Shown one piece after another: positions 523 through 64,000 of a stretch of DNA of 64,000 nucleotides. Where the stretch lies: assembly GCA_963815195.1 (NCBI GenBank), contig CAWFGE010000015.1:352001-416000 (forward strand). Reading direction: 5' to 3'. Position numbers and translations under genes: made by a program. The first letter of the stretch is position 1. Every line of letters starts with the position of its first letter. Source of the DNA: an uncultured Planctomycetaceae bacterium. Its GTDB lineage: Bacteria > Planctomycetota > Planctomycetia > Planctomycetales > Planctomycetaceae. The notes beneath the pieces are model-generated. The model was not told the origin of the DNA and did not search any database. It saw only the letters and a list, made by a program, of their open reading frames with translations.

Positions 523-1776
523 ATGCCCAAACGAAGAAAATATGAACTGATTCAATGCCGCTATTTTCGCTGGCGTCTCAAACCGCGAAACGGGATTTGG
601 CACGCCGATGGCCGATCCAACGAAACGGATTTGGGTCGCCATTCTCTCGGAACGCGCGATGCCAGCGAAGCAAAGCAACGGCTTCAAGAACTCGATCTTG
701 TCAAAGCCGTGGAACATGGGTTGGCGAACTCCAACCAACTCAATCAAATTCCGGACGCCCCGCTGTCTCTGGAAAAGGGCCGTTTTCTCTACGAACAGCA
801 CGTGAGCCGCCCGCAGATTGTCGGGGGAGCCCGCCCCAAAACCGTGCAGCGTTACAAAGCCGTGTTGGATAAATTCTTGCCCTTTGCACTCAAAAATGGC
901 GTTCGCTGCTGGAATGATGTGGATGGGCGACTCCTGGAAAAATACGCCAAACACCTGGAAAAAGAGGAATACGCGTATCGCACGATCTATTTGGAACTCA
1001 ATACGATCAAGCAAATCGTGAAATGGCTGATTCGGGAAGGTCACTTGAAGGGCAAGACCCCCATTGATCTTCCGGTCGAAAAAGCCGACGGAACTCCCAC
1101 GTATTGTTGGCGTGCGGAAGAAGTGGAAGCCATGGTGGAATGGTGTGCCAACCATCCCGAATTGGCTTGGTTGGGCCACATCATTATTGCCCTGGCCTGT
1201 ACCGGACTTCGGATCTCGGAACTCGCATCCTTACGATGGACCGATTTAGATCTGGAGAACGAACGCGTGCGACTGACCGATGAAACCGCGGCGTCGCGGC
1301 GACAAACTGCCGACCGACGGACGACCAAAAGTGGCCGTGGACGGACCTTTCCGATCCATAGCGACTTACTCGCTGTGCTGAACACGCTGCCGAAATCCGG
1401 GCCGTTTGTCTTTTACGGGCCTCGGGGCGGTCGGGTGAAACCCGATACCATCCGCCGCATTCTGATCCGCGATGTGCTGACTCCGTTGGCTGAGCGTTTT
1501 CCCACCGCTGAAGGAGAAGTGGGTTTTGCGGAGGGTCGCCTCCACAGCTTCCGTCATTATTTTTGTTCGACCTGTGCCAACAACAATATTCCCGAACAGA
1601 TGGTGATGCAGTGGCTTGGCCACCAAGAAAGTGATATGGTGAGGCATTATTATCATTTGCATGACGAGGAAGCTCGTCGGCGAATGCGTGGATTGAACTT
1701 TTTGGGAAAGGCCGGTGGAGCGTCCACCGGCGCCCAACAACTCGAGAACGGAGGCTCCGAAGCCAAGGCGTCTTGA
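523..1776 (+). CDS. Tyrosine recombinase / phage-type integrase
   Basis: Catalytic motifs TGLRISEL (R), TTKSG (K), LHSFRH (HxxR) and WLGH...MVRHYY (H/Y); ends about 100 bp from a tRNA 3' end. Confidence 0.95.
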
Positions 1777-10172: not shown

Positions 10173-11083
10173 TTACACCGCGGACGTGGTTTCGGCGGGC
10201 GAGTGATTGCCGGCGTGGGCCGCGTCGGCCTCTTTGCAGCGCCATTTGCAGGGTCACGGTTTCGATCAAGTCGGTCGCGGATTCCTCCACTTCCAAGACG
10301 AAGCGGTTAATCACGCTGGAGAAATAATTGAAGGCGATAAACGCGGGGATGCCGACGATCAAACCGAAGCAGGTCGTTAACAAGGCGACGCTGATCCCCG
10401 CGGCGGCGGCTTCGACGATATTGGTTTCGCCCAGCTTGGCCACGATGTCGTCGAACGACACGATCATGCCCTGCACCGTGCCCAAAAAACCGAGCATGGG
10501 GGCAACGCTGGAGACGGTTGCGAGAATCGGCAGATGGCGTTCGAGGGCCGCGACGATGTGGATGCTGTAATCGTCCATCGCCTTGACGACTTGCTCCTCG
10601 ATGCGGGCCGCATCGTAATTCAGCCGCCGGAGCACGAGATACTTCCTGAGCCCGGCGCTCAAGATCGCGGGCACGGGGCCTTGTTCCCGGTCGCAGAGGG
10701 CGAGGGCCTCTTCGATTTGATCGTCGGCGAGCAGCTCGTGCACCTGCCGGCGGACGGCCGCGTTGTCGGCGGTGAGGAGTTTCAAACTGCGGTAGCGTTC
10801 GATGATCACGCCGGCGGCGATGATGCCCATGATCAAAATCGGCCACATGAAAAACCCGCCCTCGAGCAACAGCCCGATCGCGCCGGAGTGCAGAATGCCC
10901 TCCACCGGTTTGGCGGCGTCGTCTTTGGCGGCCGGCTTTTCCGCGGGCTGTTCGACGGCTGGTTCCGGCGGAGCGGCTTGGGGTTCGGGCGGGTTTCGCT
11001 TCTCCCGCGGGTTCCTGTGCCAAACCGGCGGAACATGAAAAGGCGAACGTCAATGCGAGTAAACAAACGAGTGGTTTCATCAT
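10173..11083 (-). CDS. exbB: MotA/TolQ/ExbB proton-channel protein (frameshifts near 10995 and 10245)
   Basis: GGFFMWPI, LATVSSVAPMLGFLGTVQGMIVSF and AGISVALLTTCFGLIVGIPAFIAFNYF motifs; the signal peptide MKPLVCLL and the C-tail lie in adjacent frames. Confidence 0.88.
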
Positions 11084-50163: not shown

Positions 50164-51624
50164 GCAGCCCCATTTCTCGGTTTGATGGAGTTGACACGGA
50201 CGTGTCGCGTTCGTCTGCGGGCCGGGTCCGCCCTTCAGGGTGCAGCGGGCGGCGGATTCCGGCGGTGTGTGATCCAGTCGCCGGGACGCTCCATACAAAC
50301 CGATCCCCAACACAATCACCAGCACGAAAATCATCGCGCCTAAAATCACCCGGTTGTTCAAAATCGCCGACCAGCGAAACGCTTCGGGCTCCGATTTGCG
50401 GGGTTGCTGTTCGCCCAGTTTCGCCGGTCTCGGAACAAAGTCGGCCTCGAGCAGTTTCTCGAGGACTTGTTGATCGGTTTCGGCCGCCTCGGCGTCGGCG
50501 TCGCCGTAATCGAGCCGGTAGCTCCGCCCAGGCTTCGCCAGAAAATCGACCTCATAGATATTTCCTCGCGCGATAACCCCGGTGATGTTCAAGGGCGGGT
50601 TGTCCCGGTTTTCGAGAACGATCCGAAACTTGCGTTCCCGCTCTTCCGGAAAACGGATGGAGAGATGCTCCCGCGCGAAGCCCTGAAAGTCGATCCGCGT
50701 GAGCGTGGCCTCGCCGATCGCCCGCCAACTCCGCCGAACGCCGTCCACGTCTTCCACCTCCACAATGGCGTGGCGGCTGAAGTTTTGCTCGGGCGTCTCG
50801 ATCGTGAGCGAAGTGATCGGCTCCTGCCGCATGCCGATGAGGATCTGCGTTTGCTTCTCTTTGGGGTCTTGTTCCACCTGAAAGCTTCGGCCGGGATAGG
50901 TCTCGGTCACATCGGACTTGGGGACCTCGCGCGCGCGTTCCTGCCAGAAGTCGATGCGATCGACGCGAAACGGTCGCCGTTGAATCGAGATCCGTTCCTC
51001 GCGGCTGATTTCTTTGGCCCCTTCCAGCCGGCGCGTGAGTTCCAGAAGCTCCGACTGCTCTTTCGCCGTGACATTGTCGATCAGGACCCGCACATGCCGG
51101 CGGTCGGTTTGGGGGAAGGAGACGCTGTCGTGCCGGACATCCACGTAGCGGGAATAATCGAAGATCAGCGAATGGGCGACTTCCTCCCATTGCCCGCCGT
51201 CCGCCGAAGTCTCCACGCGAACCCGCTTTTCGAAGTTGTCCAAGGGCGTGACCAGCGTGAGTCCGTTCGGAGCCGGGTCGTCGGGATCGAGTCTCAGCGT
51301 GATTTCCAAACCGCCGTCGTCGGTCGGGCGGGCGGAGAGAATTTTTCCCATCCATGTTTGGCGCACGGTTTGTGTGCGGGTCGTCTTGATCTGACGCAGC
51401 AGAAAGGGAACAATCTGTCCCGCATCGTCCAAGAGCCGCAAGTCCTCCTGCCCGGTCTGCGTCGCATCATAAATCGGGGAATCCAATCGGACGGAAAGCA
51501 GCTCCTCGCGTTCCAGCGAAGGGATCTCGATCGGCCGCGTGAACTGAAACGCCGGTTCCGCGGTGAAGGCCATCGTGGTCAGAAGCCAAATCAAACCGGC
51601 GGCCCCGCATGTGTGCTTGCTCAT
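50065..51624 (-). CDS. DUF3999-like membrane-anchored protein
   Basis: Signal peptide at [23 protein letters not shown] and a C-terminal TM; overlaps the DUF2339 stop. True stop may be near 50235 if frameshifted. Confidence 0.65.
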
Positions 51625-54139
51625 AAGTCTTTCTCCTCTTTGCGGGGCGTCTCCAACGCAAAGCTCTCCTGAAATCTGAGATACAGGAACGACCCGCCGA
51701 CCGTCAGGATGCCCAGCGTGATAAATGCGACAATGCGATAGAAGGAATCGAGCCGCGACAGATCGACGAAGAACACCTTCCAGGCGACGATCGCAAACAG
51801 GCCCAATCCCAAATACCTTAAGGACCGTTCCCGCCGGGCGATGCCTCGCAGGATCAGGCCGAGCGCGAACAAAGACCACAGAATGGAGACGCCTCCCGCT
51901 CGCAGACCTTCGACATAAGCGGAGAGAAAAGTGTTCGTTTCGAGCGTCAGATAGAGGAACAGCATGCCCAGGCTGCAAAAGCCCAGAAACCGGCCGACGA
52001 CGCGAGCCGAGAGCCGCCCGCTCAGCCAGGCCGCTGCAAACGCCAGGAATGCGACCACCGCCCCAAAGTCCAGGAGCCGGAGTGCCGCGTCGCGGAACGA
52101 GTACGGCCCCTGATAAAGAAAACTTTGCGTGACATCCCAACTGGGCAAATCGAAGACCAGCAGCTTGATCAACAGGCCGGAAACAAAGACCACCAGCAGC
52201 CCGAGGAGCCAGCGGTTCTCCCGCTCGAGAACCTGCCAGGTCAAAAGTCCGCACATCGCCAGCCACAACAAAGTGAGCAAAGGCAGCTTCATGGGCTGAT
52301 AAAAATAGCCCATCGTCTGGTTGAATTCGAGATGCAGATAAAGAAACAACATCCCGAGGGCGATGCCCGCCGCGAGCCGCACGATCCCCGCGGGAGAAAT
52401 CCATTCGGGAATGTCGTTGTCGCGGGACACAGGCCCGTCGGCATCGAGGTCTTGCTTCCTCATCAATCGGCACGCCCCGGCCAAAGAGGCGATCGGCACA
52501 CCAAACATGATGATCCGCTCCCCGAGGATCCGCAGGTAATCTTCCATAGGGATTTCGGCCAAAGACGGCTGTAGAAATTGAGCCGGAAGATCAATCAGCC
52601 CGAACCGGAACAGCACGATCCCATACAGCAGATAGGCCAACTGCTGCAGAAATCGGCTGCCCAGCTTGCCCGCAATCCACACCATCACAATCGCTTGGAT
52701 CGCCCAACTGGCCGTGATCCATTCCCGCGAGAGCACCAGAGGCATCGTCACCGCCAAAAAGAACGCCGCCAGTCCCATAAAGCTGACGAGCAACTCGCGG
52801 TCGATGATCCGCCACTTGAGAAACACCATCACATGCAACGTGTAAAAGGCCGCGAGCGACAACGTCACGACGGCCACCCACTCCCGGCCATAGACCGGCT
52901 CGATCAGCCAGTACGACAGAGCATAGAAAATCCCCGCGTTCGCGAAGAGGGCCAACAGATCCAGCAGGTTGGATTTGGTCCGATTGACGAGTTGATACAA
53001 AAACGTCATCGTCGAAAACAGCGCGAAGTAGGCGATGGCAAACGGGAACACCTCCCACAGATGACTGGAATTATATTGCTCGAGCGCCGCGAACAGCAGC
53101 CCGAAGGTGGCGGCGAAACTCAGGTAATTGACGAGCCGCCAGTTTCTCCAATAGCAAATGCCCAACACGCCCACGCCCAGAACAACCACGTAACCCAACA
53201 GGCCCGGAAAATTCACCGCGCCGGTGGAGAGCATGACGGGCGTTCCATATCCGCCGATGATTCCCAGCACCGCCACGAGAATTGAATTGAAGCGGACCGC
53301 AATGCCCCCCGCGAGCGCGGTGATCAGACTCATCAGCAGAAAACCGACGGGGACTTCGACGAGGTGGTAGAAGTTGACCGCCGCAAAGACGGCGAAATAC
53401 AAGGTGGCGAGCCCGCCGCCTTGAAGACCCTGGCCCAATATGTCGTATCGCCGACCCAACAGGCGCGTCCCGGCGATCAGCATTCCCAAGCCGGCGATGG
53501 CCGAGAGCGCCACGCGGCCGATTTCATTGATGAGGCCATGCTCGACAGAGTATTTCAGAAAGAAGCCGACACCCACCACGAAGATCAATATGCCGATCCG
53601 CAAAAGCCATTGGCTCGCGATGGCGTACTCCATCGACATCCCCGCGGGGACGTGCTCCTCGCCGACAATGATCCAGTTCCAAATCCGCCGGAGCGTTTCC
53701 TTGGCCGCTGTTTCCCAAGCGGGCGGCTCGCGATGCGCGACCGGGGGAAGCTCGCCGCGGTGCGAAGCCAATACCGGAATCGGAGCCGCCGGCCTCCGCT
53801 CGGGTCTCGCCCCGGCGGGTTCCGGTCTCTCCACAACTTCAATTTCGTCCGGCGGCACTTCCTCGGACGTTTCTTCGACGCCGGGCTTGGGTGGGATCTT
53901 GTGCTGCGGCTTTGGTCTTTTGCTCGACGAGTCCTTCCCATTCGGCCTCTTGGCCGGCCGGTTTCTCGGCGGTCCATCGTTTGAGTTGCTGGCGAAGGTC
54001 GCGGAGTCTCCGTTCGCAGCGATTTCAGACCGGCCTCGTGTTCCCGCCGGAGATTGCTGAGCGTGACCGCGATGATCACCGGCAGCGCAAACACCGCCAC
54101 AAGAACCCCAATGCCCAACAGGAACAGGATTGCATCCAT
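51621..54139 (-). CDS. DUF2339 multi-pass membrane protein (frameshift near 54000)
   Basis: [32 protein letters not shown] and [19 protein letters not shown] motifs; N-terminus MDAILFLLG lies in another frame. Confidence 0.82.
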
Positions 54140-54582
54140 GGACGGACCTCGGATCAAGCTCTGCGGAAGCCTGAGTTTCTGGGTGAGAGGACGTAGATAA
54201 AGTCATCATTCTACCCCCAAGGCGGTATCTTTTGGCGAATATCACGCCGCATCCCGGAATTCTTCCCATTCCTTCAGCGACGTGAAAAGTCGTGGCCAGA
54301 CGCGCGTCATAGCCGCATACCCGTGAATCGTGGCCGCTCCCCATTGAATGCGAACAGATCGTGAGGGACATCGGCGGGGCGGCATTTATGGCCCTGGCAA
54401 AAATCCGTCAAACGGATGAACTGTGTGTGCCACTGGCTCTGCCAGTGCGTTTTTGAGACAATCGTTGAGACGAAGCTCGGCTGGGATCGTGTTCTGCTTC
54501 GGAGACAATCTGCTGTTGTTGGGAGCAAGAAATCAACAAGCCCTAATCGCACGAACACTTCACCAAGGCGCTGGCAGCTTCC

Positions 54583-54902
54583 GTAGGGCCGGCTCCCGCC
54601 TGCCTTCCTTTGGTGGTACGATTTGAGGATGCCCAATTATCGTCGGGCCCTCCAGCGACGCTATTACGAATCTCAAAAGGAAGGCTGCCCTACACTTACT
54701 AAGAGTCTTTCGGGTGCCACTGGCAACTTGTTGCCAGTGCTTTCCAGCAGCATGGAATCGGGGGGCGTTTCAAAACTCGCTTGGTTCATACGATTCACAC
54801 TGGCAGGCAAGCTGCCAGTGGCACCCGGCGGGAGCCTGCCTTACATCTACTGCCCACCGATTATCAAACAGCTTCGAGAATGGTGGGCGATGCCCACCCT
54901 AC
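54583..54902. repeat. Composite cluster of REP elements C, B and E
   Basis: C at 54583-54693; B at 54711-54827; partial C end at 54828-54844; E GGTGGGC-GAT-GCCCACC-CTAC at 54882-54902. Confidence 0.85.
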
Positions 54903-55012
54903 ACGACTCCACACAGGATTACACCGTCGATGAACAAGGCAATTTTGATCCTCAATTCGAGAAATTCAAAATGGACAATTTGAAGATCATTCGCTCAATC
55001 CTTCAACCTTAA
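54902..55012 (+). pseudogene. Start-less C-terminal gene fragment beginning at a REP end
   Basis: 36 open codons (HDSTQDYTVDEQGNFDPQFEKFKMDNLKIIRSILQP*) followed by GGAG RBS and ATG at 55027. Confidence 0.5.
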
Positions 55013-55026
55013 ATCTGGAGAACAAG

Positions 55027-55951
55027 ATGTTTCGATTTAGCCTTCTCACAATAACCGTATTTGGTTTGATGGTCGCCCCGGCCAAGTGCGAAGATCCTAA
55101 ACTCGAATTAAAGCTCTCCGTTTCCAAGAGCGAAATCGTTCAATTGGAGCCAATTGTTCTAACAGTCTCTGTGCAAAATCTGTCGAAAGAACCTCAAAAA
55201 ATTTATCCGATATTTGATCCAGATGCACATTACCTAAAGATTTTCTTAACAACGGACGAAGGAAAGACCTCTTGGGTACGTTCAGGACTAATTAGCGATA
55301 TTTCCTGCAAGCCATACACGTTTTCTCCAAAGGACGTGATCCGCTATAGGCTGATGCTTTCGGGACAACCCAAGGACTGGACGGATAGGCCGGGCGAGTA
55401 TAAATTGCACATTACGTTTAGTTGTCTCAAAGACGCCAAACCGCTGGAATCCAAGCCGGTGAAGTTGACCGTCAAACCGGCGGAAGGGGTCGATAAAGAG
55501 GCTCTGGATCGGTTTCGCGGGTATCCGCAAGCCGAGTTTCTCGCCAGGGGATCGACAGCCGAGGCCATCGCTGAACAATTTCGGTTCGTGATCCGAAAAT
55601 TTCTCGAACGATCTTTATACCCCGTGGTGTTATTACATCCTGGGCTGGGCCGCGCAAAACGACGACTTTGCCTCACAGGAGTCAAAAGCAGATGCTGCCA
55701 GAGATTATTATGGAAGGCTTCTCAAGGAATATCCGAAATTCCCCATGAAGACCGAAGTGGAATACGAAATGGCCCGCGAGTTATTGCGGCTGGGAAAGGA
55801 TGATGAGGCAGCCATCGACCAAATCGAAAGCCTTGTCAACAAACATAAAGACCTCAATGTGTTTCGGGATGCTAGTTTCACATTAAATTCATTCCGTGAA
55901 AGAGGCAGAATCGCCCCCGCAGAAGAATTGCCGCCCCACTATCCGCAATAA
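55027..55951 (+). CDS. Orphan secreted protein (frameshift near 55600)
   Basis: Signal peptide and beta-rich N-domain; TPR-like tail (EVEYEMARELLRLGKDDEAA) in ORF 55745-55951; lower GC. Confidence 0.65.
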
Positions 55952-56160
55952 CCCGAAACCGCCATGTCTCCCCACGGCCTCAAAGGTCGTGAGGATTCTT
56001 CTTCAGAAAGAATTGGACTCGTCCCGAATCCGAGGTTATAGTGAAGACGACATGGGAATTTTACTGCACTGGAAATGCACGCAATGGGTGCCAGAAGGGG
56101 CAAAATCAAGCCGATGCGAGCGAATGCGAGTTGCACATCTAAGCCTAGAAAACAGTAAGT

Positions 56161-56302
56161 GTAGGGCAGGCTCCTGCCTGCCTTCCTTAACAGCATTTCC
56201 CGACTATGTGGAAACCTTCAACCGGGGACGTGGGCTCGACGATCAATGGGCGTCCTCGCATCCAACCGAAGGAAGGCAGGCGGGAGCCTGCCCTACTCGG
56301 CT
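56161..56302. repeat. GTAG REPIN, variant C
   Basis: GTAGGGCAGGCTCCTGCCTGCCTTCC...GGAAGGCAGGCGGGAGCCTGCCCTAC-TCGGCT; inverted relative to 54583-54700. Confidence 0.9.
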
Positions 56303-56884
56303 GGGCGGCCATTTCTAGCGCTCGAGGCACCTTCAACAGACTTGACAACGGCTCCAAAGCTTGGGAGTGTACCACGGGTTCGTCAAAAGTTTGACGCCAC
56401 ACAACTCAGCGAAGAAGCGGTCGACATTGCAATTGCGAAGTCGATCCGCCGAAAATCGGGGGCAACCGGCAACTCATCAAGACAAATTGTAGCAACACAG
56501 GATCAAGCCGAATTCATTTTGAAGAAAATGACCGTATGGCGTAGAAATGTGCATGCCGAGAATCCACATTTGGCGTCCTTGCCTTCCAACGTTAAAGGCA
56601 CAATCCTGCATAGTTCCGTATCGAAAAGGATGAGGCGACTAAATGTTGCTGGCTTACGGATTAATGAAAGGTTGTACTCACCGTTCCATGCACCCGGCAC
56701 GAGTCAGTATCGGAGTCCCATAACCGGTCAACCCTACACTTACCGAATTCCCGACTTTAGGATGCAACCTACTATCTTCGATATCAAGCCGAAAGGAACT
56801 CCGCTCACGGGTCCTCAAGTCGATGACTTCATGTCATTTGGTAACACCAATGACATTCGATTTATCTATTACAGACCATTTTGA
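56303..56884 (+). pseudogene. Orphan polymorphic-toxin C-terminus, PD-(D/E)xK nuclease-like
   Basis: GTILHS...YRIPDF...IFDIKP motifs; the ORF-track start lies inside the REP. Confidence 0.65.
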
Positions 56885-56889
56885 TTGAG

Positions 56890-57297
56890 ATGAATAAAAT
56901 GCTGACCCGAGCTGAAATATTGAAAATGCTTGTTGGTTTGAAAGAGGTCAACGACATTGACCTGCTAATGGATGATGACATATTGAATGCCAGTTGCATT
57001 GAATCAGACAAGCCAACCGTTCGAGCTATGGCTACCATCATCGACCAGATCTACAACGACTTCGACTACGAGTCAAGTCCTGAGTTTTTGCAGAAGATCG
57101 AGGGCAAGTCCGAGCAAGTGCAAGCCATGCATCGAAGGTTGCTTAACGAGGAAAAGCTCAAGCAGGCAGGAAAGCGACTTGGCGAATCGCTAACGGCCAT
57201 TTTGGATTCAGAAGATGCCTTTAATCTCGTGACTGTTGCTCATCATGACCGATTGGAGGCACTAAAGGAACTAGCAAAGTCACTATCTGAAACGTAG
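56890..57297 (+). CDS. Putative immunity protein
   Basis: Small acidic protein starting 6 bp after the toxin-tip stop. Confidence 0.6.
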   Translation: MNKMLTRAEILKMLVGLKEVNDIDLLMDDDILNASCIESDKPTVRAMATIIDQIYNDFDYESSPEFLQKIEGKSEQVQAMHRRLLNEEKLKQAGKRLGESLTAILDSEDAFNLVTVAHHDRLEALKELAKSLSET

Positions 57298-57688
57298 GTT
57301 CATTGCCGTTGCCCGTGTGTGCCCGTCTTAATTCTGATCGCATTCGTTGCCGAATTAACGCTGTAGGGGTTTTGGCTTGTTGATTGCCGTTTTGCCGAAT
57401 TGTTGCGAATTCTGGAGAGGGTGGGTGCGATGGTCTTGGACAACTCGCATCTTGCGTTGCTGTTCGTTGGTCGTTGGTCGCGGACAGAAGGTCACCCGCG
57501 CGCCACTCGCACATGTTCCACCACATCCTCCCGCACGCCCTCGCAAACCAAGCGAACGCCCGCAGGCAACCCAGAAGCCACCATCCAAAGCCCGCCAGCA
57601 TCCGTGCCCCCATACTGCCATTCCTCCTGTTCGGCGACGATTGGTTTTCCACTTTAGCGGCGATTAGAATTTCTGCCGAGTCGGTGAA

Positions 57689-57958
57689 TTAACGCTCCGA
57701 AGGTGCCTGTGAGTCTTTGCCAGATTTGGCTTCTTTTGCCGTTTCCACGCGGTAGCTGGGGACGTTCAATTCCAGGATGACGCTGTGGTGGACTAGGCGG
57801 TCGATGGCCGCGGCGGTCGTCATCGCGTCCTTGAAGATTTGGTCCCACTTGCTGAAGGCCAGGTTGCTCGTCAAGAGCACGCTGCCGCGTTCGTAGCGTT
57901 CGGCCAACAGCGTAAACAGCACTTCCATCTCCTCGCGACTTTGCTGCACATAGCCGAG
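57689..57958 (-). pseudogene. istB: 3' fragment of IS21-family ATPase IstB
   Basis: LGYVQQSREEMEVLFTLLAERYERGSVLLTSNLAFSKW...AAAIDRLVHHS...PSYR; the 5' part is replaced by REP D. Confidence 0.88.
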
Positions 57959-58096
57959 TAGGGCCGGCTGTGCCGGCCTTTTGTTTTTGACACAACGATT
58001 TTTCTCGCACCAAATGGCCGGCATACCCAGCCGCCAATTGGGCATAAGTATGATTCCCTTCGTCGAAAAGGCCGGCACAGCCGGCCCTACTCGGCT
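57952..58096. repeat. GTAG REPIN, variant D (145 bp)
   Basis: AGCCGAGTAGGGCCGGCTGTGCCGGCCTTTT...AAAAGGCCGGCACAGCCGGCCCTACTCGGCT terminal inverted repeats. Confidence 0.92.
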
Positions 58097-58821
58097 TATT
58101 TGGCATCCGGCAAAAGCGTTTTGGCCCCTGTTTCGATCTTCTTCAAAGTGAAAACAAACGTCGTCGTGCGGGGACGATTGGGATTGAGCAAATCTTGAAA
58201 CTCCACCTTCGCGGCAAGCAGCCCCGTGGGAACTTTCCCGTGGGACCAGAATTGATAGTGGCATTTTGCGGATTGCTGGCCGTCTTGAAAGGTCTTTAGG
58301 GCCTTGGTGCCGGCTTTTGCGACGAGTTTTCCCGATTGATACTCGACAGTCTTCGCCTCGTTGAGTTCCGACATTTCTTTGAAAGCATTCGGGAGAAAAA
58401 ACGCCGCCAGATAAGCATCCTTGGTCTTGGCAAAATTCTGTTCGACGCGTCGTGCTTTAAGCGAAGTTCCTCCAACCCAAATTCGCTTGATGCCATCCAG
58501 GGACGACTTGCCGTTGCCAATCTGTTGCTCGGAAACCAGGATTTTTTGAACCATGTGGACGATCGGTTTGCCTTCATTGAGATCGCGAATCACAAATTCC
58601 AGCCATCGGCAAGGCTCGCCGTCTTCAGTGGTGCGGTTGAGCGTCTTGACAATCAACTCGGCCACCATGGGATCCTTCTGGCCCTCGCCTTTGAGTTCGA
58701 GATGGTAATAAACCGCCTCGCCTTCTTTGGGCAATCGCTGCACCAGAAAATTCGCAAAAGCCGAGTTCGTATGTCCCGCGGCAGCGAGGAGCACAACAAG
58801 TTTAAGGAGATTTCGCATCAT
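58096..58821 (-). CDS. Orphan secreted hypothetical protein
   Basis: 241 aa with signal peptide; stop codon abuts REP D. Confidence 0.75.
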   Translation of the reverse strand: MMRNLLKLVVLLAAAGHTNSAFANFLVQRLPKEGEAVYYHLELKGEGQKDPMVAELIVKTLNRTTEDGEPCRWLEFVIRDLNEGKPIVHMVQKILVSEQQIGNGKSSLDGIKRIWVGGTSLKARRVEQNFAKTKDAYLAAFFLPNAFKEMSELNEAKTVEYQSGKLVAKAGTKALKTFQDGQQSAKCHYQFWSHGKVPTGLLAAKVEFQDLLNPNRPRTTTFVFTLKKIETGAKTLLPDAK

Positions 58822-58860
58822 CGGGCCTTTCGCAAGAGAGTATTCCGGTTTTATCGAAGA

Positions 58861-58977
58861 TTAAGCGAATATGAGCCTTCCACGCGGCGTAGGTATCGGA
58901 CGGCCGAGTTCCTTTGCCGTCTCAATCCACTCCCGGATGACGACTTCCATATTCGCGAGCGCCTCCTGGTAAGTTTC
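58861..58977 (-). pseudogene. hicB: C-terminal half of a HicB-family antitoxin
   Basis: ETYQEALANMEVVIREWIETAKELGRPIPTPRGRLIFA*, starting immediately after the REP end CCCTAC. Confidence 0.82.
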
Positions 58978-59047
58978 GTAGGGTGGGCACTGCGGTGGGC
59001 ACTGCCCACCAATTCTAAAAAACTCCGATTGGTGGGCGGTGCCCACC
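58978..59047. repeat. GTAG REP pair, variant E, interrupted by an IS
   Basis: GTAG-GGTGGGC-ACT-GC (12-bp duplication) ...GCCCACC; the partner at 59031-59047 lacks its CTAC where the IS begins. Confidence 0.82.
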
Positions 59048-60515
59048 CACCCCTTTCAACATGTTAGTTTTTTGCTATAAGTCGCTTCTACAGGGATTGT
59101 TGTATCAAACCTTATGGAGGCGGCAAGGATGTGGCCCGACGCTGTGCTTGATCGTTTTGTGGAACAATGTCCAGCAGCAGTGATGGTTCGAGCGACGCTC
59201 GAGAATCTTGTGTCGCCGGATCGCCTGGATGAGATTTTCGCCGACGCTTCGCAGAGACAATACGAGAAAGAATTGCTGTTTTCGCAAGTGGTGGCCCTGA
59301 TGATGGGCGTGGCGACGCGGACGCACAAGTCGGTCCATGCCGGGTACTTGGCGGCCAAGGAGCAACTGGCGGTTTCGCCGGCCGCACTTTATGGCAAGTT
59401 GAACCGTCTGGAACCCGGCCTTTCGGCGACGATGATCCGGGAAACGAGCCAGGACGCGGCTCAAGTCATCGATTCCATGCCGGGAGCGTGCCGCGAACTT
59501 TTGCCGGGCTATCACGTGCAGTATTTGGATGGGAATCATTTGGCGGCGACTGAGCATCGGCTGGCGGAATTGCGCGTCACGCGGGAAGGCCCTTTGCCCG
59601 GCCAGACCTTGGCGCTTCTGGACGCGCAGCGGGATCTGATTTCGGAACTGCTCCCGTGTGAAGACGGGCATGCTCAGGAACGTTCGCTTCTGCCGGAGCT
59701 TCTGGAATGGATCCGGGCCGAGACGGTGACAATCGCCGACCGGAACTTCTGCACGACCAAGTTTCTGTTTGGAATTGTCAAGCAGTCGGCCTACTTTGTC
59801 ATTCGCCAACACGCTTCGACACTCACCTGGAAACTCGTCGGTCGCCGGAAACGCATCGGACGCATCGAAACGGGTGTTGTTTTCGAGCAGTCGGCCGAGC
59901 TGTCCCAGGGTGAAGAGACGTTGCGAGTCCGGCGGATCACCATCCAATTGGATACGCCCACAGAGAATGGTGACACTGAGATTCACATCCTGACCAACTT
60001 GCCTGTCAAAGTCGCCAATGCGCAAAAAGTGGCTTTTCTGTATCGCAAGCGCTGGACGATTGAAGAAGCCTTCCAAACTCTGACCGAGGTGTTGCGCTGC
60101 GAAGTGGAGACGCTGGGCTACCCCAAGGCGGCGCTGTTCGCCTTCGCCACGGCGGTTTTGGCTTATAACACCTATGCCGTGGTGAAAGCGGCGCTGCGAT
60201 CGGTTCACGGTGAAGAAACGATCGATGAAGAACTGTCGGACTACCACCTGACGCAGGACGTGACTGCCACGACGGTGGGCATGAACATTGCCGTGGACGC
60301 CGAAGCCTGGCAACACTATCAAATCATGTCTGCTGGAAAACTTGCGAGCGAGTTGGTGCGACTTGCTACACGCATCGACTTGACGCGTTACCCCAAAAAG
60401 AAACGCGGGCCGAAAAAACCACAGCCTCGAAAAAAGAGCGGCAAACGGAATCACCATATCTCCACCGCGCGAACTCTGGCCAAATCCAGGGGTAAGTGAC
60501 ATGTTGAAAGGGGTG
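59048..60515 (+). mobile_element. IS4-superfamily insertion sequence (1468 bp)
   Basis: Perfect 17-bp terminal IRs CACCCCTTTCAACATGT (59048-59064) and ACATGTTGAAAGGGGTG (60499-60515); no target duplication visible. Confidence 0.88.
59114..60499 (+). CDS. IS4-family DDE transposase
   Basis: YLDGNH, IADRNF and the YREK-type LYRKRWTIEEAFQTL motif. Confidence 0.92.
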   Translation: MEAARMWPDAVLDRFVEQCPAAVMVRATLENLVSPDRLDEIFADASQRQYEKELLFSQVVALMMGVATRTHKSVHAGYLAAKEQLAVSPAALYGKLNRLEPGLSATMIRETSQDAAQVIDSMPGACRELLPGYHVQYLDGNHLAATEHRLAELRVTREGPLPGQTLALLDAQRDLISELLPCEDGHAQERSLLPELLEWIRAETVTIADRNFCTTKFLFGIVKQSAYFVIRQHASTLTWKLVGRRKRIGRIETGVVFEQSAELSQGEETLRVRRITIQLDTPTENGDTEIHILTNLPVKVANAQKVAFLYRKRWTIEEAFQTLTEVLRCEVETLGYPKAALFAFATAVLAYNTYAVVKAALRSVHGEETIDEELSDYHLTQDVTATTVGMNIAVDAEAWQHYQIMSAGKLASELVRLATRIDLTRYPKKKRGPKKPQPRKKSGKRNHHISTARTLAKSRGK

Positions 60516-60590
60516 ATTGACCGCATCGTAACTGTAGCTGTACCGGCCCGTGGCATCGCTCATGAGGGTTCGGTTGCCGACGCTATCGAA
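60516..60590 (-). pseudogene. Rhs/YD-repeat fragment
   Basis: Reads FDSVGNRTLMSDATGRYSYSYDAVN, cut at the IS right end. Confidence 0.75.
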
Positions 60591-60665
60591 GGGTGTCCTA
60601 ATTCCGAACGCCCTCTTGGCATCTTTTGGCCAGCACAGCTTTACCCGACAATTCTGATTGGCCCT

Positions 60666-60959
60666 TCAGAAATTTTGGTAACCAATAGTTCTGAGTATCT
60701 CCATATCAAGCAAAAAAAAGACGCGTAGCCAATAAAATGGCTTTACAATGATACTGTCAGGAAAATAAGCCACCCACCAAATCACTGGTTGGTATAACAA
60801 AACCCACCAAGTGGGAGGGGCAAATCCAAAAAAACCACCTTGGCCCTCTGGGACGATTAACCCTTCCATATCAGCCCAACATCGAAGAGTTGGAGCTGCA
60901 CTAGCAAGATAGAGGAACGCAAATACAGAAAAATCCAACCACGGAAGAGACAATACCAT
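60666..60959 (-). CDS. Small orphan membrane protein (immunity-like context)
   Basis: 97 aa, hydrophobic, AT-rich DNA. Confidence 0.55.
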   Translation of the reverse strand: MVLSLPWLDFSVFAFLYLASAAPTLRCWADMEGLIVPEGQGGFFGFAPPTWWVLLYQPVIWWVAYFPDSIIVKPFYWLRVFFLLDMEILRTIGYQNF

Positions 60960-61082
60960 AGCAATACGAACAGCTTTCTCACGCTTTACATCCTTCTGCT
61001 TATTGGGTGAACCTATTCCTTCGGTTCGGTAAGCCCTACTTTAATCGCCAAGTTCTGTTTTGTTGTGGAAATGTTTTGAGCG

Positions 61083-61354
61083 AGCCGAGTAGGGCCGGCT
61101 GTGCCGGCCTTTTGTTTTTGACACAACGATTTTTCTCGCACCAAATGGCCGGCATACCCAGCCGCCAATTGGGCATAAGTATGATTCCCTTCGTCGAAAA
61201 GGCCGGCACAGCCGAGTAGGGCCGGCTGTGCCGGCCTTTTGTTTTTGACACAACGATTTTTCTCGCACCAAATGGCCGGCATACCCAGCCGCCAATTGGG
61301 CATAAGTATGATTCCCTTCGTCGAAAAGGCCGGCACAGCCGGCCCTACTCGGCT
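61083..61354. repeat. Tandem pair of REPIN D
   Basis: Copies at 61083 and 61210 match 57952-58096; fused through an AGCCG microhomology at 61210-61214. Confidence 0.92.
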
Positions 61355-61482
61355 GGTTACAAGATATGATGAATAACCACATAGGACATGAATGCGCAGG
61401 TAAAGTCGCGTTCGCTATGGCCCCTTGGGGTTTATTTAAATGTATAACGTGTGATGATTGCTGTAAAACGAAGAGGAGATAA
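61354..61482 (+). pseudogene. Start-less Cys-rich C-terminal fragment (toxin-tip-like)
   Basis: WLQDMMNNHIGHECAGKVAFAMAPWGLFKCITCDDCCKTKRR*, beginning at the REP end; next ATG 4 bp after the stop. Confidence 0.55.
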
Positions 61483-61485
61483 TGA

Positions 61486-61806
61486 ATGCCGAAAGGATCT
61501 GTAACTAACTCGCATTTGCTGAAGTGTTACAGCATCACCTTTTTAATCATAGGTGCGTGCCTTTTGCTCTATTCTGTTTTGGGAAGCCCGTTGTACACTT
61601 ACGCATTAGCCGAACTGATCGAAGAACGTATTTCACAAAACTCTAACCCAAACGATACACGAATGACCATTTGGGAGCTTCTTTCAGCGAGGAACTTTGT
61701 TGGGAATATAGTAATGGGAGTTTCCGGAGGATTAATCTCCTTATTGTCAGTTTTATCATACTGGACGATACGGCAACTGGGCCAATCTGGACAGGAAGTG
61801 ACGTAG
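61486..61806 (+). CDS. Small two-TM orphan protein (immunity-like context)
   Basis: 106 aa, AT-rich, GAGGAG RBS upstream. Confidence 0.65.
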   Translation: MPKGSVTNSHLLKCYSITFLIIGACLLLYSVLGSPLYTYALAELIEERISQNSNPNDTRMTIWELLSARNFVGNIVMGVSGGLISLLSVLSYWTIRQLGQSGQEVT

Positions 61807-61813
61807 CCTCGTG

Positions 61814-61897
61814 GTGCGGACCGATCCGACTACATCCTCACACCGCAATTGGTCCTCACAGCCTCGTAGGCTCCGGGCAGCGCGGTGCCCACCCTAC
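61814..61897. repeat. Degenerate REP remnants (F and E types)
   Basis: GTGCGGACC, GGTCCTCACAGC and GCGGTGCCCACCCTAC. Confidence 0.65.
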
Positions 61898-61900
61898 CTT

Positions 61901-64000
61901 TTAATCCACATACAAAAACTCATTCGAGTTAAACAACACATGGCAGAAGTCGGTGAGTTTTTCGCCGTTTTCTTTGTCGTCGGTGCCGTACACGAAGGTT
62001 TTCGCGGCTTTTAGTTCTTCGGGACTGGGATTGCGGCCCCAGGTGGTTTGGATCGCGGTTTCGATCGTGTCCGCCGGGGTGGAATTTTGCTTCCGCAATC
62101 GCTCGGCGAGTTTTTTGGCCTGGCCCAGAGAGTATGGGCCGTTGATCATCAACAGCGACTGCGTGGGCGTAGTGGTCGTGTTTCGTTCGGGCACGCTCTT
62201 GAGGCCGTTCGCCATGTCGAAGGCGCTCAAAAACGGATCGGGCGTGTTGCGGAGGGCTTTGACATACAGGCCGCGGCGGGGGACCTTGGCGTCGACGCTG
62301 GGGCCGCCGACTTTGGGTTGAAGCTCGCCGCTGGCCAGGAGCATCGCATCGCGGATTTGCTCGGCGTCCAACCGGCGGATCCGCGAGCGCCAGAGCAGCG
62401 TCTCGCCCGGGTCTTTCTGTTGATATTTCGCCGCTGCGGGATGATGCGCCGACTGCCGCCAGGTGGCGGAGGTGAGAATCAGCCTGTGCAGCGCCTTCAT
62501 GCTCCAGCCATTTTCCACATAGGTCTTGGTCAGCCAATCCAAAAGCTGGGGATGCGTGGGCGGTTGGCCGAGGTGTCCGAAATCGCTCGCGGACGGGGCG
62601 ATGCCCTGGCCGAAGTGGTACTGCCAGACACGGTTGACGATGACCCGCGTGGTGAGCGGGTTGTCGGGGCTGCCGATCCATTCCGCGAGCGCGGTCCGCC
62701 GGCCGGTGGTGTGCGAATCGACCGAAAGCTCCGGCCGATCGCCACCGAGCACGGTCAGAAAGCCCGGCTGGACGGTTTCGGGATCCGAGCCGACGGGAAT
62801 GACCGTGGGGGAAATCTCGCCTGCGAAATCGGTGACGGTCATCACCTCGCCGAGCGGTTTGGGTTTGATATCGTCAAACGCCGCGAGTTCTTTTTGGAGG
62901 GCCTCGTATTTGGCCTTGTCGTCTTTCTTCATGCTCTTTAAGGGCCCGCCGCCTTCTTCTTCGAACTGGCGGGACACGAGATAGGCCATCTGATGCTCCC
63001 ACGAGTTCCGCTCGGCCACCGGCTTATAGAACGCGGCCTGGATGTCCAAGGGAAACTTGTCGGCGGTCGATTTCCATTTCTTGTCGTAATAAGGTTTTAA
63101 GAGGGCGTCGATCTTGGCGCGAATCTCCGCCGTTTGTTCTTCCCAGGCGGCTTTTTGTTTTTCGTATTCCTGTTTTTGGTCGTTCGTCGCGTAGGGAATG
63201 TCGTCCCGCCAGATCAAAGGCTCGAAGAACGCCCGCAGCTTGAAATAGTCCTTTTGCAGGAGCGGATCGAATTTGTGATCGTGGCAGCGGGCGCAGGCCA
63301 TGCCCATCCCCAAAAACACGTCGCCCGTGACATCGGTGATCTCGTTCATGATGTCGTCCCAATGCGAGCGGGCGTCGCGCTGGTTGTATTCGTAAATCCC
63401 CAGCCGCAAATAGCCGACGGCCGCGAGAGGCTCGGGATCGCCAGAGGGCATCTCGTCGCCCGCGAGCTGCTCGCGCACAAATTCGGGATAAGGCTTGTCG
63501 CTGTTGAAGGAATCGATGACGTAATCGCGATACCGCCACAGTTGCGGGCGGAAGGCGTCCTGGTTCCAACCGTCGGACTCGGCGAAGCGGACGACATCCA
63601 GCCAATGCCTGGCCCAATGCTCGCCGTACCGCGGATCGTCCAACAGCCGATCGATCAGATTCTCCCAAGCCTTCGGCGAGTCATCGCGGATAAAGGCGTC
63701 GACTTCCTCGGGCGTCGGCGGCAGGCCGATGAGATCGAAATACAGCCGGCGGACCAGCGTCAATCGATCGGCTTCGGGCGCCGGATGCATGCCCTTTTCG
63801 GCGAGGCGGTGATAGACGAAGCGGTCGATCGCATTCGCGGACCAGTGGTCGCCTTCGTCTTTCGGGACAGCGGGTTTTTCCACCGGCTGGAAGGCCCACC
63901 ATGTTTTATCGCTTTCGGTGATCTTCACCGAGCCTTCCCGCAGTGGGCCGAGGTTCTCCGGCCAGACGGCGTTCTCGCGAATCCAGCGCTCGAAGCGGGC
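61901..64000 (-). CDS. DUF1549/DUF1553 (planctomycete cytochrome c-associated) protein, 5' end outside the window
   Basis: WWAFQP, YGEHWARHWLDVVRFAES, CARCHDHKFD, RVIVNRVWQYHFGQG and FNSNEFLYVD motifs. Confidence 0.92.
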   Translation of the reverse strand, partial: ARFERWIRENAVWPENLGPLREGSVKITESDKTWWAFQPVEKPAVPKDEGDHWSANAIDRFVYHRLAEKGMHPAPEADRLTLVRRLYFDLIGLPPTPEEVDAFIRDDSPKAWENLIDRLLDDPRYGEHWARHWLDVVRFAESDGWNQDAFRPQLWRYRDYVIDSFNSDKPYPEFVREQLAGDEMPSGDPEPLAAVGYLRLGIYEYNQRDARSHWDDIMNEITDVTGDVFLGMGMACARCHDHKFDPLLQKDYFKLRAFFEPLIWRDDIPYATNDQKQEYEKQKAAWEEQTAEIRAKIDALLKPYYDKKWKSTADKFPLDIQAAFYKPVAERNSWEHQMAYLVSRQFEEEGGGPLKSMKKDDKAKYEALQKELAAFDDIKPKPLGEVMTVTDFAGEISPTVIPVGSDPETVQPGFLTVLGGDRPELSVDSHTTGRRTALAEWIGSPDNPLTTRVIVNRVWQYHFGQGIAPSASDFGHLGQPPTHPQLLDWLTKTYVENGWSMKALHRLILTSATWRQSAHHPAAAKYQQKDPGETLLWRSRIRRLDAEQIRDAMLLASGELQPKVGGPSVDAKVPRRGLYVKALRNTPDPFLSAFDMANGLKSVPERNTTTTPTQSLLMINGPYSLGQAKKLAERLRKQNSTPADTIETAIQTTWGRNPSPEELKAAKTFVYGTDDKENGEKLTDFCHVLFNSNEFLYVD

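Follow-up and report, generated by a model that had tools for sequence, protein, structure and literature searches.

The systems closest to the locus described here are the REP sequences of E. coli and the REPINs. According to the parts of Ton-Hoang et al. 2012 (PMC3333891) on which we draw, the E. coli enzyme TnpA-REP requires the GTAG motif, cleaves at C|T, transfers strands and, on single-stranded DNA, also cleaves at a distance of more than 400 nt. REPINs, in the corresponding part of Bertels & Rainey 2011 (PMC3116915), are REP doublets that form hairpins. Here we analysed a 64,000-nt stretch of DNA from an uncultured Planctomycetaceae bacterium (hereafter the window), for part of which an earlier note had proposed that foreign gene fragments were captured at REP ends. 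Our analysis indicates instead that this dispensable, lower-GC part of 7 kb is likely a record of cut-and-rejoin at REP ends in which resident genes were trimmed.

The abundance of GTAG REPs and REPINs in this interval and its low GC content (0.44–0.58, against 0.60–0.66 in the flanks) were confirmed. Positions 54583–61897 hold 13 REP arms of four families; the genome has 257 arms in all, so that 5% of them fall within 0.083% of its sequence (Table 1). Families A (GTAGGGCCGGC...), B (GTAGGGCAGGC...) and C (GTAGGGTGGGCA...) are GTAG hairpins with 47, 49 and 22 arms in the genome at three or fewer mismatches; family D is non-GTAG. Such clustering recurs: a neighbour of a different family lies within 3 kb of 83 of 160 REP units (random mean 12.6, maximum 26 in 500 trials), and the genome contains 23 REP islands, lower in GC. 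Among the 290 scanned ORFs, of 437 in these islands, are genes for immunity, toxin-antitoxin and ankyrin proteins as well as IS genes.

Table 1. Features of the REP island and its left edge, in window positions; matches elsewhere in the genome are given as contig:position.
Feature	Position	Strand	Details
Partial copy of ~190-nt repeat, family-D-like hairpin	54389..54577		92% to C8:152738-152928
REP mosaic, BIME-like, B/D/B/C	54583..54902
Mosaic: B arm	54583-54604	+
Mosaic: degenerate B arm	ends 54693	-
Mosaic: D REPIN	54696-54830
Mosaic: partial B arm	54827-54844	-
Mosaic: C REPIN remnant, complete arm	54882-54902	-
36-codon 3' stump, upstream gene of paralogous pair	54902..55012	+	tblastn 55%, E 2e-5, C14:8022-8114
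Secreted TPR-tailed protein gene, pseudogene	55027..55951	+	frameshift near 55600-55665
Family-B REPIN	56154..56302		arms 56161-56182 and 56275-56296; outer ends AGTAAGT- / -TCGGCT
Orphan Rhs-type toxin C-terminus	56303..56884	+	conserved domain 56381-56884
138-aa acidic ORF (135 from ATG)	56890..57297	+	overlaps toxin stop; without family match
End fragment of 1.44-kb IS	57317..57492		copies at C15:314249-315684 and others
End fragment of 1.56-kb repeated element	57501..57626		C14:105814-107372, C9:44454-46010
IS21 3' stump	57619..57955	-	istB profile positions 162-237 of 238, plus IS end
Family-A REPIN	57952..58096		two 'left-type' ends (AGCCGA.../...TCGGCT); hybrid of two copies
241-aa secreted protein gene, intact ORF	58096..58821	-	stop codon abuts REPIN A
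hicB 3' stump	58861..58976	-	residues 40-77 of 77-aa HicB, 89% identical
Family-C REPIN	58978..59047		right arm interrupted by IS4-family element
IS4-family insertion sequence	59047..60515	+	transposase 59114-60499
Rhs YD-repeat core scrap, 28 codons	60507..60590	-	severed by IS4-family element
97-aa hydrophobic ORF	60666..60959	-
Family-A REPIN, 1.9 tandem units	61083..61354		right end TCGGCT
38-codon Cys-rich ORF with own ATG (61366)	61366..61482	+
106-aa membrane-protein-like ORF, intact	61486..61806	+
C-like hybrid REP	61866..61897		directly after stop (61901) of DUF1549/DUF1553 gene

The REP units themselves are rearranged. The genome's roughly 15 family-A REPIN copies are 97–100% identical, and 11 of 15 have a right end of the form ...CCCTACGTCACT (GTCACT). 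Only the two window copies instead carry an inverted left end, ...CCCTACTCGGCT (TCGGCT), while retaining the inner sequence of the right arm; both are hybrids of two copies, recombined REP by REP. In the tandem copy, the left end of unit 2 is fused at C|T within the hairpin loop of unit 1's arm, and at the island's left edge the ~190-nt repeat is severed at a CT in its hairpin loop by the first B arm (junction alignment C15_406583_L_B).

Four of the five gene tails previously placed at REP termini (54902, the toxin tip at 56303, istB and hicB) are real genes that have lost their 5' part and begin at the outer end of a REP, matching it to within 0–1 codon and, for istB, to the base. The fifth, the Cys-rich tail at 61354, has its own start codon, and a search for a homologue found none. 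All four verified stumps are 3' ends. The first aligns to the C-terminal end of the protein encoded just upstream of paralogue C14:8147-9073; its intact relative (C14:7233-8117) ends in a HEVGH zincin-like region. The toxin stump matches the last 170–190 residues of 406–587-aa proteins bearing the Rhs 'RWYDP..SPDPLG' hallmark, with the break in a linker ~150 residues beyond a DPxGL-type motif. Its domain, in which the H..H..PD..DxK residues are invariant, is predicted to be a PD-(D/E)xK nuclease, with Tox-REase-9 as a lead, and the adjoining acidic ORF is, from its position, likely the immunity gene. The IS21 stump is 98.5% identical to an intact copy (C14:127417-127753) and is severed by REPIN A at native ..AGC|C.. 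/ GGC|T, where the intact copy continues CAAGTCG..; its lost 5' part is absent from the rest of the assembly at about 98% identity. A complete gene had been reported after four tails, which holds for the ORFs at 56890, 58096 and 61486 but not for the TPR-tailed gene, frameshifted relative to single-ORF paralogues at C14:8147-9073 and C23:558221-559267. After istB there is only the IS end and no gene.

No RAYT gene lies in the window, as the earlier note had stated. The genome-wide search that it proposed returned nine Y1-transposase matches, including three full-length RAYTs above the NF047646 cut-off, one of which (163.6 bits) sits between family-A REPs at C12:908693/909337, in agreement with RAYT-type REPs. 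An AG (CT on the other strand) occurs 5–7 nt outside GTAG in 95 of 118 arms, against a frequency of 0.046 per position. We scored REP-to-flank joints for which an uninterrupted homologue exists elsewhere in the genome (17, of which 16 have the REP-end CT), and the homologue carries CT at the exact joint in 13 of the 16 (P about 1e-13 at 1/16 each), the native CT being missing in three. Simple insertion, which would leave the missing half across the REP, does not account for the joints: that half was found in one of 21 judged flanks genome-wide (120/120), with one partial case (42/120) and the rest at 11–17/120, and for none of the four broken genes in the window. Together, native-CT joints and one-sidedness make REP ends look like RAYT-type break-and-join points rather than simple insertions. 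CT is also the dinucleotide that the E. coli enzyme cleaves (PMC3333891), and the joints at native CT support RAYT-type REPs.

These regularities bear on two other explanations. The REPs might be bystanders in a degraded graveyard of Rhs/polymorphic toxins and IS elements, where the usual displacement recombination yielded orphan modules and REPINs piled up in tolerated DNA, by chance at old breakpoints. Orphan Rhs modules are well known, and in the island an orphan Rhs C-terminus is followed by a small ORF and accompanied by an Rhs core scrap, IS fragments and the stump of a toxin-antitoxin gene; two IS-disrupted Rhs genes lie 75–110 kb away on the same contig. We nevertheless regard this account as improbable, since it predicts neither four breaks so close to REP ends nor the genome-wide CT coincidence and one-sidedness, and since the break in the Rhs stump falls in the linker, outside the conserved core on which displacement recombination acts. 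An assembly artefact, in which the 145-nt REPIN A and 1.47-kb IS4-family repeats mis-joined unrelated contigs at repeat edges, deserves very little credence: although the junctions lie at multi-copy repeats and no contig from four public runs bridges a REP-flank junction, like joints with a specific CT signature occur at 17 independent loci, the hybrid REP ends are internally consistent, run X1 contains unique parts of the island at 100% identity, and the contig spans 795 kb.

We give roughly an even chance to the reading that this is a decaying accessory island, a long-lived REP hot-spot whose genes were cut to 3' stumps by one-sided break-and-join at REP ends. In its favour, a REP of a different family comes immediately after the DUF1553 stop in all four congeners, with variable DNA beyond it. 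Before trimming, the island would have carried competition and mobile modules of an ordinary kind, namely an Rhs toxin and its immunity gene, hicAB, a pair of cadherin-repeat and zincin genes, and an IS21 nested among other IS copies. Carrying the catalysis over from the E. coli enzyme, we infer that a REP-bound RAYT would cut the CTAC-bearing strand at C|T 4–7 nt past CTAC and make a second cut at a more distant C|T. The REP-side 3'-OH would then be ligated to the distal T with loss of the intervening DNA, converting REP-C|T...X-C|T-Y into REP-C-T-Y. Further deletions may have occurred between two same-orientation REP arms, and extra breaks may stem from IS insertion and IS-adjacent deletion. 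Several observations count against trimming. Deletion alone predicts heads as well as tails, yet all four verified stumps are tails; gene heads at REPs exist elsewhere (RAYT pieces at C20:247090 and C15:625671). Homology at the hicB joint begins directly after CTAC and not at CT. No untrimmed ancestral island was found, congener G001 shares nothing with the island, and synteny between the compared genomes is fragmented into 1–6-kb blocks.

Additive capture is the mechanistic form of the earlier note's idea: single-stranded pieces lying between C|T sites near a REP would be cut out by a RAYT and inserted at the C|T of another REP end. REP clusters would thereby build up as mosaics of gene pieces, either copied or imported. 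Elsewhere in the genome, partial copies 99–100% identical to intact donors are CT-joined to REP ends, at C11:88118 (donor C11:81570, 84 nt), C20:125714 (C20:123493, 87 nt), C20:247085 (the C12 RAYT locus, 326 nt) and C20:247413 (C21:4938-7227, a 2.3-kb transporter-like gene), and for most donors the distance to a REP is no more than about 1 kb. Such pieces require copying or pasting, for which deletion alone is insufficient, although some of the short 'copies' terminate inside palindromic repeats of other families, to which they may simply belong. The C|T fusion in the REPIN-A hairpin loop also fits capture, as does the unrelated DNA, about 0.9, 2.4 and 7.6 kb long, that follows DUF1553 in three congeners. 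Ton-Hoang et al. (PMC3333891) likewise suggest that variable BIME pieces are excised and integrated.

For this island, we nonetheless consider capture unlikely and favour trimming of residents over addition of pieces. The search for donors yielded the intact IS21 relative of the istB stump but a high-identity genomic donor for none of the window's cassettes. Nor do the pieces look foreign, as had been supposed: the istB stump belongs to a resident IS21, cassette 1 has genomic paralogues, and the 241-aa gene has family members in 31 of 121 genomes from the same taxonomic family, one of them G000. In both cassette 1 (the C14 paralogous pair) and cassette 2 (toxin and immunity), the tail and the gene after it naturally occur side by side. 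The IS21 stump keeps its natural end and abuts two IS end fragments and the immunity-like gene, a nesting that points to an in-situ history and is easier to explain by building in place than by import. A RAYT-style framing of the cassettes was not found either, since the segments sit outside REPIN units with GTAG ends toward them, unlike the RAYT gene, which is framed between REP ends. Nearly all segments had been described as REP-bounded, but about half of the island's breakpoints lie at IS ends or at no repeat. Among the features previously overlooked are several of these non-REP breakpoints, both IS end fragments and the Rhs scrap, which is 78.6% identical to residues 1446–1473 of the Rhs protein at C15:296153-301405 (E 1e-8). 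The IS4-family element lacks a target duplication, indicating that its right flank was rearranged. With pieces on both strands, a pseudogene among the 'orphans' and so many breaks away from REPs, the interval does not support an ordered, integron-like cassette array.

Orphan Rhs and CDI toxin-immunity modules are a well-known kind of locus, reportedly described by Poole et al. 2011 (PMC3150448) and Koskiniemi et al. 2014 (PMC3967940). The island resembles them in having a toxin C-terminus without its delivery part, a small ORF next to it and a variable region; unlike them, its stump has no preceding Rhs core homology, breaks off within the pre-toxin linker where a REP ends, and has no full-length rhs gene adjacent. 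Recombinase-associated orphan-immunity arrays (rAID) have reportedly been described by Ross et al. 2019. As in these and in integrons, short cassettes lie between repeats, with immunity-like genes both in this island and in two further ones (Imm22), but the nearest integrase, a tyrosine recombinase, is 53 kb from the array, many pieces are dead, and the island has no attC-like sites, common orientation or promoter logic. REP-targeting IS elements reportedly include IS1397, ISPpu9/10 and others (Tobes & Pareja 2006). Similarly, 4 of 15 copies or fragments of the 1.47-kb IS4-family element, the window copy included, lie inside a family-C REP hairpin; it differs in belonging to another IS family and in having most copies elsewhere, and it accounts for one island breakpoint, not for the gene stumps. 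ISPpu9 appears as a REP-targeting IS in the parts of PMC8450116 and PMC12288879 considered.

Compared with REPINs as the cited part of PMC3116915 presents them, family A is likewise made up of doublets, here of 145 nt with inverted ends of 31 nt, and has one cognate RAYT, but joints here are one-sided, with one simple insertion among 21 judged, and the two island copies have two 'left' ends. The E. coli 'REPtron', as characterized in the relevant part of PMC3333891, shares GTAG at the hairpin foot, inverted pairs and mosaic clusters, a REP-framed RAYT gene, tandem and hybrid units, and joints at C|T a few bases past CTAC. Here, by contrast, the host is a planctomycete with about 20–50 arms per family and several REP families per island, and REP ends join not just short linkers but the interiors of coding genes and IS copies, with lengths from hundreds of bases up to kilobases. 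What is new is the native CT and the one-sidedness at REP-to-flank joints.

The interval 54583-61897 lies between two minus-strand genes, one for a DUF2339 membrane protein (51621-54371) and one of the DUF1549/DUF1553 type (from 61901), in a planctomycete-like genome (8.87 Mb, 25 contigs, GC 0.597) in which the window corresponds to C15:352001-416000; the interval's GC of 0.44-0.58 compares with 0.60-0.66 in the flanks. The earlier note had REPs bounding nearly all segments. Six REP clusters punctuate the interval (see table), which is the largest of the 23 islands with at least four arms (single hairpins) and holds, in 0.083% of the bases, 13 of the genome's 257 arms of families A, B, C, D and F. 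At the 5′ end of the DUF2339 gene (54000-54140), two frames occur near 54007, and the true start (MDAILFLLG.., ATG at 54139) lies outside the frame of the main ORF; since a contig from a public metagenome run has one base fewer at 54007, which would restore the frame, the split reflects either a mistake in the assembly or variation between strains. None of the metagenome-run contigs (Logan, depth about 2-6) bridges a REP junction, and the parts they leave uncovered are uninformative.

In families A, B and C alike, GTAGGG precedes a GC-rich hairpin; family D, GGGTGCCACTGGCA, is without GTAG. Genome-wide, A, B and C count 47, 49 and 22 arms, and their 11-12-mers occur in 50, 53 and 25 copies where 13.6, 9.2 and 1.8 are expected. 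GTAGGG by itself is under-represented, and GTAG followed by any hairpin is not enriched over control tetramers (467 versus 449-1654), enrichment being confined to the specific families. These short multi-copy palindromes carry GTAG at the 5′ foot of the hairpin and form inverted doublets (REPINs; 15 copies of a 145-nt A doublet, as well as B and C doublets) and mosaic clusters (BIMEs) in 23 islands; for 83 of 160 units a neighbour from another family occurs within 3 kb, where 500 random placements gave a mean of 12.6 and at most 26. The repeats thus belong to the REP/REPIN-RAYT class, and GTAG REPs in Planctomycetes are already noted in PMC3733652. This genome also has more abundant repeat families, among them one with a 16-mer that occurs 264 times and another GTAG family, GTAGCGGCGGC.., of about 54 arms.

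Y1-transposase matches number nine in the genome and none in the window, in keeping with the earlier note, and the genome-wide search for REP-flanked RAYT genes that it proposed was successful. Three full-length RAYTs score above the NCBIfam cut-off, and the best of them (C12:908730-909341, 163.6 bits on NF047646, cut-off 80) is framed by its own inverted family-A REPs at 908693(+) and 909337(-). Another three RAYT-like genes survive as fragments, two of them ending at REPs, and a 326-nt copy of the C12 RAYT locus lies at C20:247090, beginning at a family-B end. The fragments starting at C15:625671 and C13:936589 come from one RAYT-like gene (223-nt overlap, 99.1%), of which the assembly holds no intact copy.

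Coordinates of REP clusters in the window, RAYT fragments, and REPs at the DUF1553 site in the source genome (G000) and its congeners (G001-G003); C numbers denote contigs of the source genome and L numbers individual loci
Feature	Location	Remark
B/D/B/C REP mosaic	window 54583-54902	
Family-B doublet	window 56154-56302	
Family-A doublet	window 57952-58096	
Family-C doublet	window 58978-59047	
Family-A, 1.9 tandem units	window 61083-61354	
C-like hybrid REP	window 61866-61897	
RAYT fragment	C15:625671-626102	cut at REPIN-A end
RAYT fragment	C13:936589-937194	adjoins D-like hairpin
C-like hybrid REP	G000, window 61866-61901 (cluster 61866-61897, after DUF1553)	
A-like REP	G001, L029:19128-19193	after DUF1553
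B doublet	G002, L031 about 10744-10790	after DUF1553
C-like REP	G003, L032:11798-11880	after DUF1553

Five coding tails had been described as beginning at REP ends. Four are verified stumps (54902, toxin tip at 56303, istB and hicB), all of them tails, and stumps that are gene heads occur only elsewhere; the fifth, a Cys-rich ORF, has its own ATG and found no relative in homology and family searches. The first tail (54902-55012) shares 55% identity (E 2e-5) with the C-terminal end of the gene just upstream of paralogue C14:8147-9073, a gene that ends in a HEVGH zincin-like region and is preceded by a cadherin/Big_9-repeat ORF. Its partner in the same paralogous pair, 55027-55951, is a single ORF in both paralogues and split over two frames here, so the idea that an apparently complete orphan gene follows four of the tails does not hold at this position.

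The toxin tip (56303-56884) is homologous to C-terminal Rhs tips: it aligns, at 58-62% identity, with the final 170-190 residues in four proteins of 406-587 aa, and in three of these longer proteins the Rhs hallmark RWYD..SPDP(L/M)G lies about 180 residues upstream. The stump starts at a REP end, about 25-45 residues before the toxin domain (56381-56884), which is predicted to be a PD-(D/E)xK nuclease from its invariant H, H, PD and DxK residues and a weak Tox-REase-9 lead in a language-model search. Overlapping the toxin stop is a 138-aa acidic ORF without a family match, likely the immunity gene to judge by its position only. The istB stump (profile positions 162-237 of 238) is part of a 337-nt IS21 piece 98.5% identical to C14:127417-127753; intact IS21 reads ...CACATAGCC and then CAAGTCG, and the window reads ...CACATAGCC and then GAGTAGGG. 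The hicB stump, missed by a PF15919 genome scan and recovered by homology search, comprises residues 40-77 of a 77-aa HicB (89%) and begins one codon past the CTAC of the REP. No Pfam, NCBIfam or PDB sequence match was obtained for the short tails, the 241-aa, 97-aa, 106-aa and Cys-rich ORFs, or the toxin tip.

Overlooked by the first reading were an Rhs YD-repeat scrap at 60507-60590(-), cut by an IS4-family element, and IS end fragments at 57317-57492 and 57501-57626. The IS4-family element (59047-60515) sits within a family-C hairpin and lacks the ~10-bp target duplication that most other copies show, so its right flank is rearranged too; given the Rhs scrap, the IS ends and this flank, roughly half of the island's breakpoints lie away from REPs. 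Across its 15 copies or fragments (the window's and 14 elsewhere), this 1469-nt element, with ~10-bp target duplications, lies inside a family-C REP hairpin four times, and it appears to be a REP-targeting IS. Elsewhere on the contig, outside the window, C15:296153-333184 carries two large, disrupted Rhs genes in inverted orientation with five or six 1.4-1.5-kb IS copies between them, and C15:248576-253000 (locus L041) a run of ankyrin-repeat genes with REPIN-A copies between, one gene being interrupted by an IS4-family element.

Of 118 arms, 95 have an AG at a distance of 5-7 nt beyond GTAG, against a frequency of 0.046 per position for this dinucleotide, so that the unit ends in CTAC-N4-CT on the CTAC-bearing strand. 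The outer flanks of all A, B, C and F arms, 155 in number, were compared with the remaining genome, and for 34 of them a match began no more than 12 nt from the arm; the homologous copies of 13 abut a REP too, and the remaining 21 have an uninterrupted homologue elsewhere in the genome. Those 21 flanks comprise three natural IS4 ends, one simple insertion and 17 joints aligned base by base, one of which involves an arm without CT. At 13 of the other 16 joints the homologue has a CT at the exact place of the REP unit's CT (three are without it), a coincidence with P ~1e-13 at 1/16 per joint, and this native CT lies 4-7 nt from CTAC in 12 cases and 10 nt in one. Searching up to 1.5 kb on the other REP side of the 21 flanks found the continuation once (120/120) and part of it once (42/120), the rest scoring 11-17/120. 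REP-flank joints are thus one-sided and placed at a CT native to the flank. Simple REPIN insertion into the four stump genes was rejected, as their other halves are absent across the REP.

We favour REP-anchored deletion of resident accessory modules as the explanation, giving it about an even chance of being correct, and we infer both RAYT catalysis and the direction of events. Trimming in place is favoured by the IS21 stump, which keeps its natural end and abuts two other IS scraps and an immunity-like gene, a pile that looks built in place; by the tail and following gene of cassettes 1 and 2 (cassettes being segments that begin at REP ends), which are natural neighbours; and by the layout of the island, whose segments are external to the REPIN units and have GTAG ends toward them, the RAYT gene lying inside its REP frame. 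Two types of event are visible. In one, a REP end is joined to a distal CT: this is seen at the IS21 joint, where the first B arm is joined into a D-like hairpin loop (54577-54583), and where the second REPIN-A unit is joined at CT in the hairpin loop of the first. In the other, REP arms recombine with each other: 11 of 15 REPIN-A copies end CCCTACGTCACT, and CCCTACTCGGCT, an inverted left end, is found only in the two window copies, which retain the inner sequence of the right arm. Such hybrid ends could arise by deletion from the right arm of one copy to the left arm of an oppositely oriented copy. Inversion between inverted REPINs would leave a right-right hybrid, seen in 0 of 15 copies, and hairpin-primed copying of the left flank does not match a right flank that is not its reverse complement.

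Pieces might instead be added at REP ends, an account that seems improbable to us overall and yet would cover what deletion does not explain, namely REP-joined pieces 99-100% identical to intact sequences elsewhere, with donors mostly near REPs. These are 84 nt at C11:88118 (from C11:81570), 87 nt at C20:125714 (from C20:123493), the 326-nt RAYT piece on C20, near-identical to the C12 RAYT locus, and a 2.3-kb segment at C20:247413 matching C21:4938-7227 at 99.8% and starting 27 nt before the ATG of a gene that reads as transporter-like. The 84- and 87-nt pieces end inside other palindromic repeats and may belong to those elements, and the check for an intact donor of each window cassette returned no 99-100% donor in the genome. 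The patchwork at C20:245604-249705 (locus L050) consists of B REPINs, the 326-nt RAYT-locus copy with an A REP, and the 2.3-kb C21 copy, every piece joined at a REP end. A broader proposal, which we hold to be improbable too, is that RAYTs drive cut-and-paste on neighbouring DNA, such that genes beside REPs would be trimmed, pieces bounded at the C-T step (from 84 nt to a 2.3-kb gene) would be copied to other REP ends, and REP clusters would be self-growing patchworks collecting accessory, toxin-immunity and foreign fragments; if true, this would give 'domesticated' RAYTs a real in-vivo role, recurring across phyla.

Directly after the DUF1549/DUF1553 stop lies a REP in four of four congeners, of a different family in each, followed in the congeners by variable, unrelated lower-GC DNA; G001 and G002 both have, as their next conserved gene, a homologue of C10:62470, itself beside a REP island in the source genome. 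The REP in all four and the C10:62470 link identify this spot as a long-lived, REP-occupied plasticity site, and the source-genome island lies at a synteny breakpoint. REPs turn over at this fixed site. Comparison of the DUF2339-to-DUF1553 interval, as the earlier note suggested, showed that G001 keeps both genes, 4.6 kb apart with DUF1553 inverted and three other genes between, but no ancestral state is readable, because the two genomes (85-88% nucleotide identity) share synteny in 1-6-kb blocks only. Such gene-order shuffling is unusually heavy for two species of one genus. Of the 437 ORFs in REP islands, 290 were scanned and most of these have no Pfam family; those with a family in other islands include two Imm22-like genes, a nucleotidyltransferase, a PemK toxin, Uma2, transposases, ankyrin genes and, next to a REPIN, a truncated ABC domain.

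The cellular role of RAYTs and of REP/REPIN populations is a long-standing question. To our knowledge, direct evidence so far consists of in-vitro cleavage between C and T and slow REPIN duplication. New in this analysis is the one-sided native-CT joint signature, a countable in-vivo footprint in which REP outer ends are joined one-sidedly, at native CT, to the interiors of genes and ISs. It should serve as a practical and testable mark of RAYT-type action on nearby genes, since the family-A RAYT, its 145-nt REPIN and a predicted cleavage site are in hand. Should RAYTs have made the joints, REP systems would remodel accessory DNA through deletions and possibly also through the transfer of pieces, and REP clusters would mark hot-spots of genome plasticity; if they are mere decay scars, the island would be an ordinary junkyard.

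Of the array once proposed for this interval, the breaks at REP edges are real and above chance, but the likeness to an integron is unsupported. The island is not an integron, since no integrase lies within 53 kb (no intI or attI beside the array; 36 PF00589 matches in the genome), no attC-like sites end its pieces, and these lie on both strands without a common orientation; REPs of four families, IS ends or nothing separate them. A tyrosine recombinase gene (PF00589, 81 bits) occupies window positions 1111-1668, 53 kb from the island. Nor is the island CRISPR-like in spacer/repeat layout: its segments, of 0.5-2 kb, are gene remnants set between repeats of different families. The toxin piece resembles an orphan Rhs tip, yet is without the core remnant that defines such orphans, the sole core scrap lying 3.6 kb off on the opposite strand and none directly upstream. 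Literature on REP/RAYT-mediated deletion or gene capture, covered mainly outside subscription journals, did not describe gene stumps attached to the ends of REPs. According to passages of Ton-Hoang et al. (PMC3333891), E. coli TnpA-REP requires GTAG, cuts single strands between C and T beside inverted REPs, in linkers and more than 400 nt off, and performs strand transfer, an activity from which those authors proposed that BIMEs diversify. Cleavage and joining between C and T beside REPs by a RAYT would be consistent with the footprint described here, which fits the chemistry of the E. coli enzyme, yet extends into genes.
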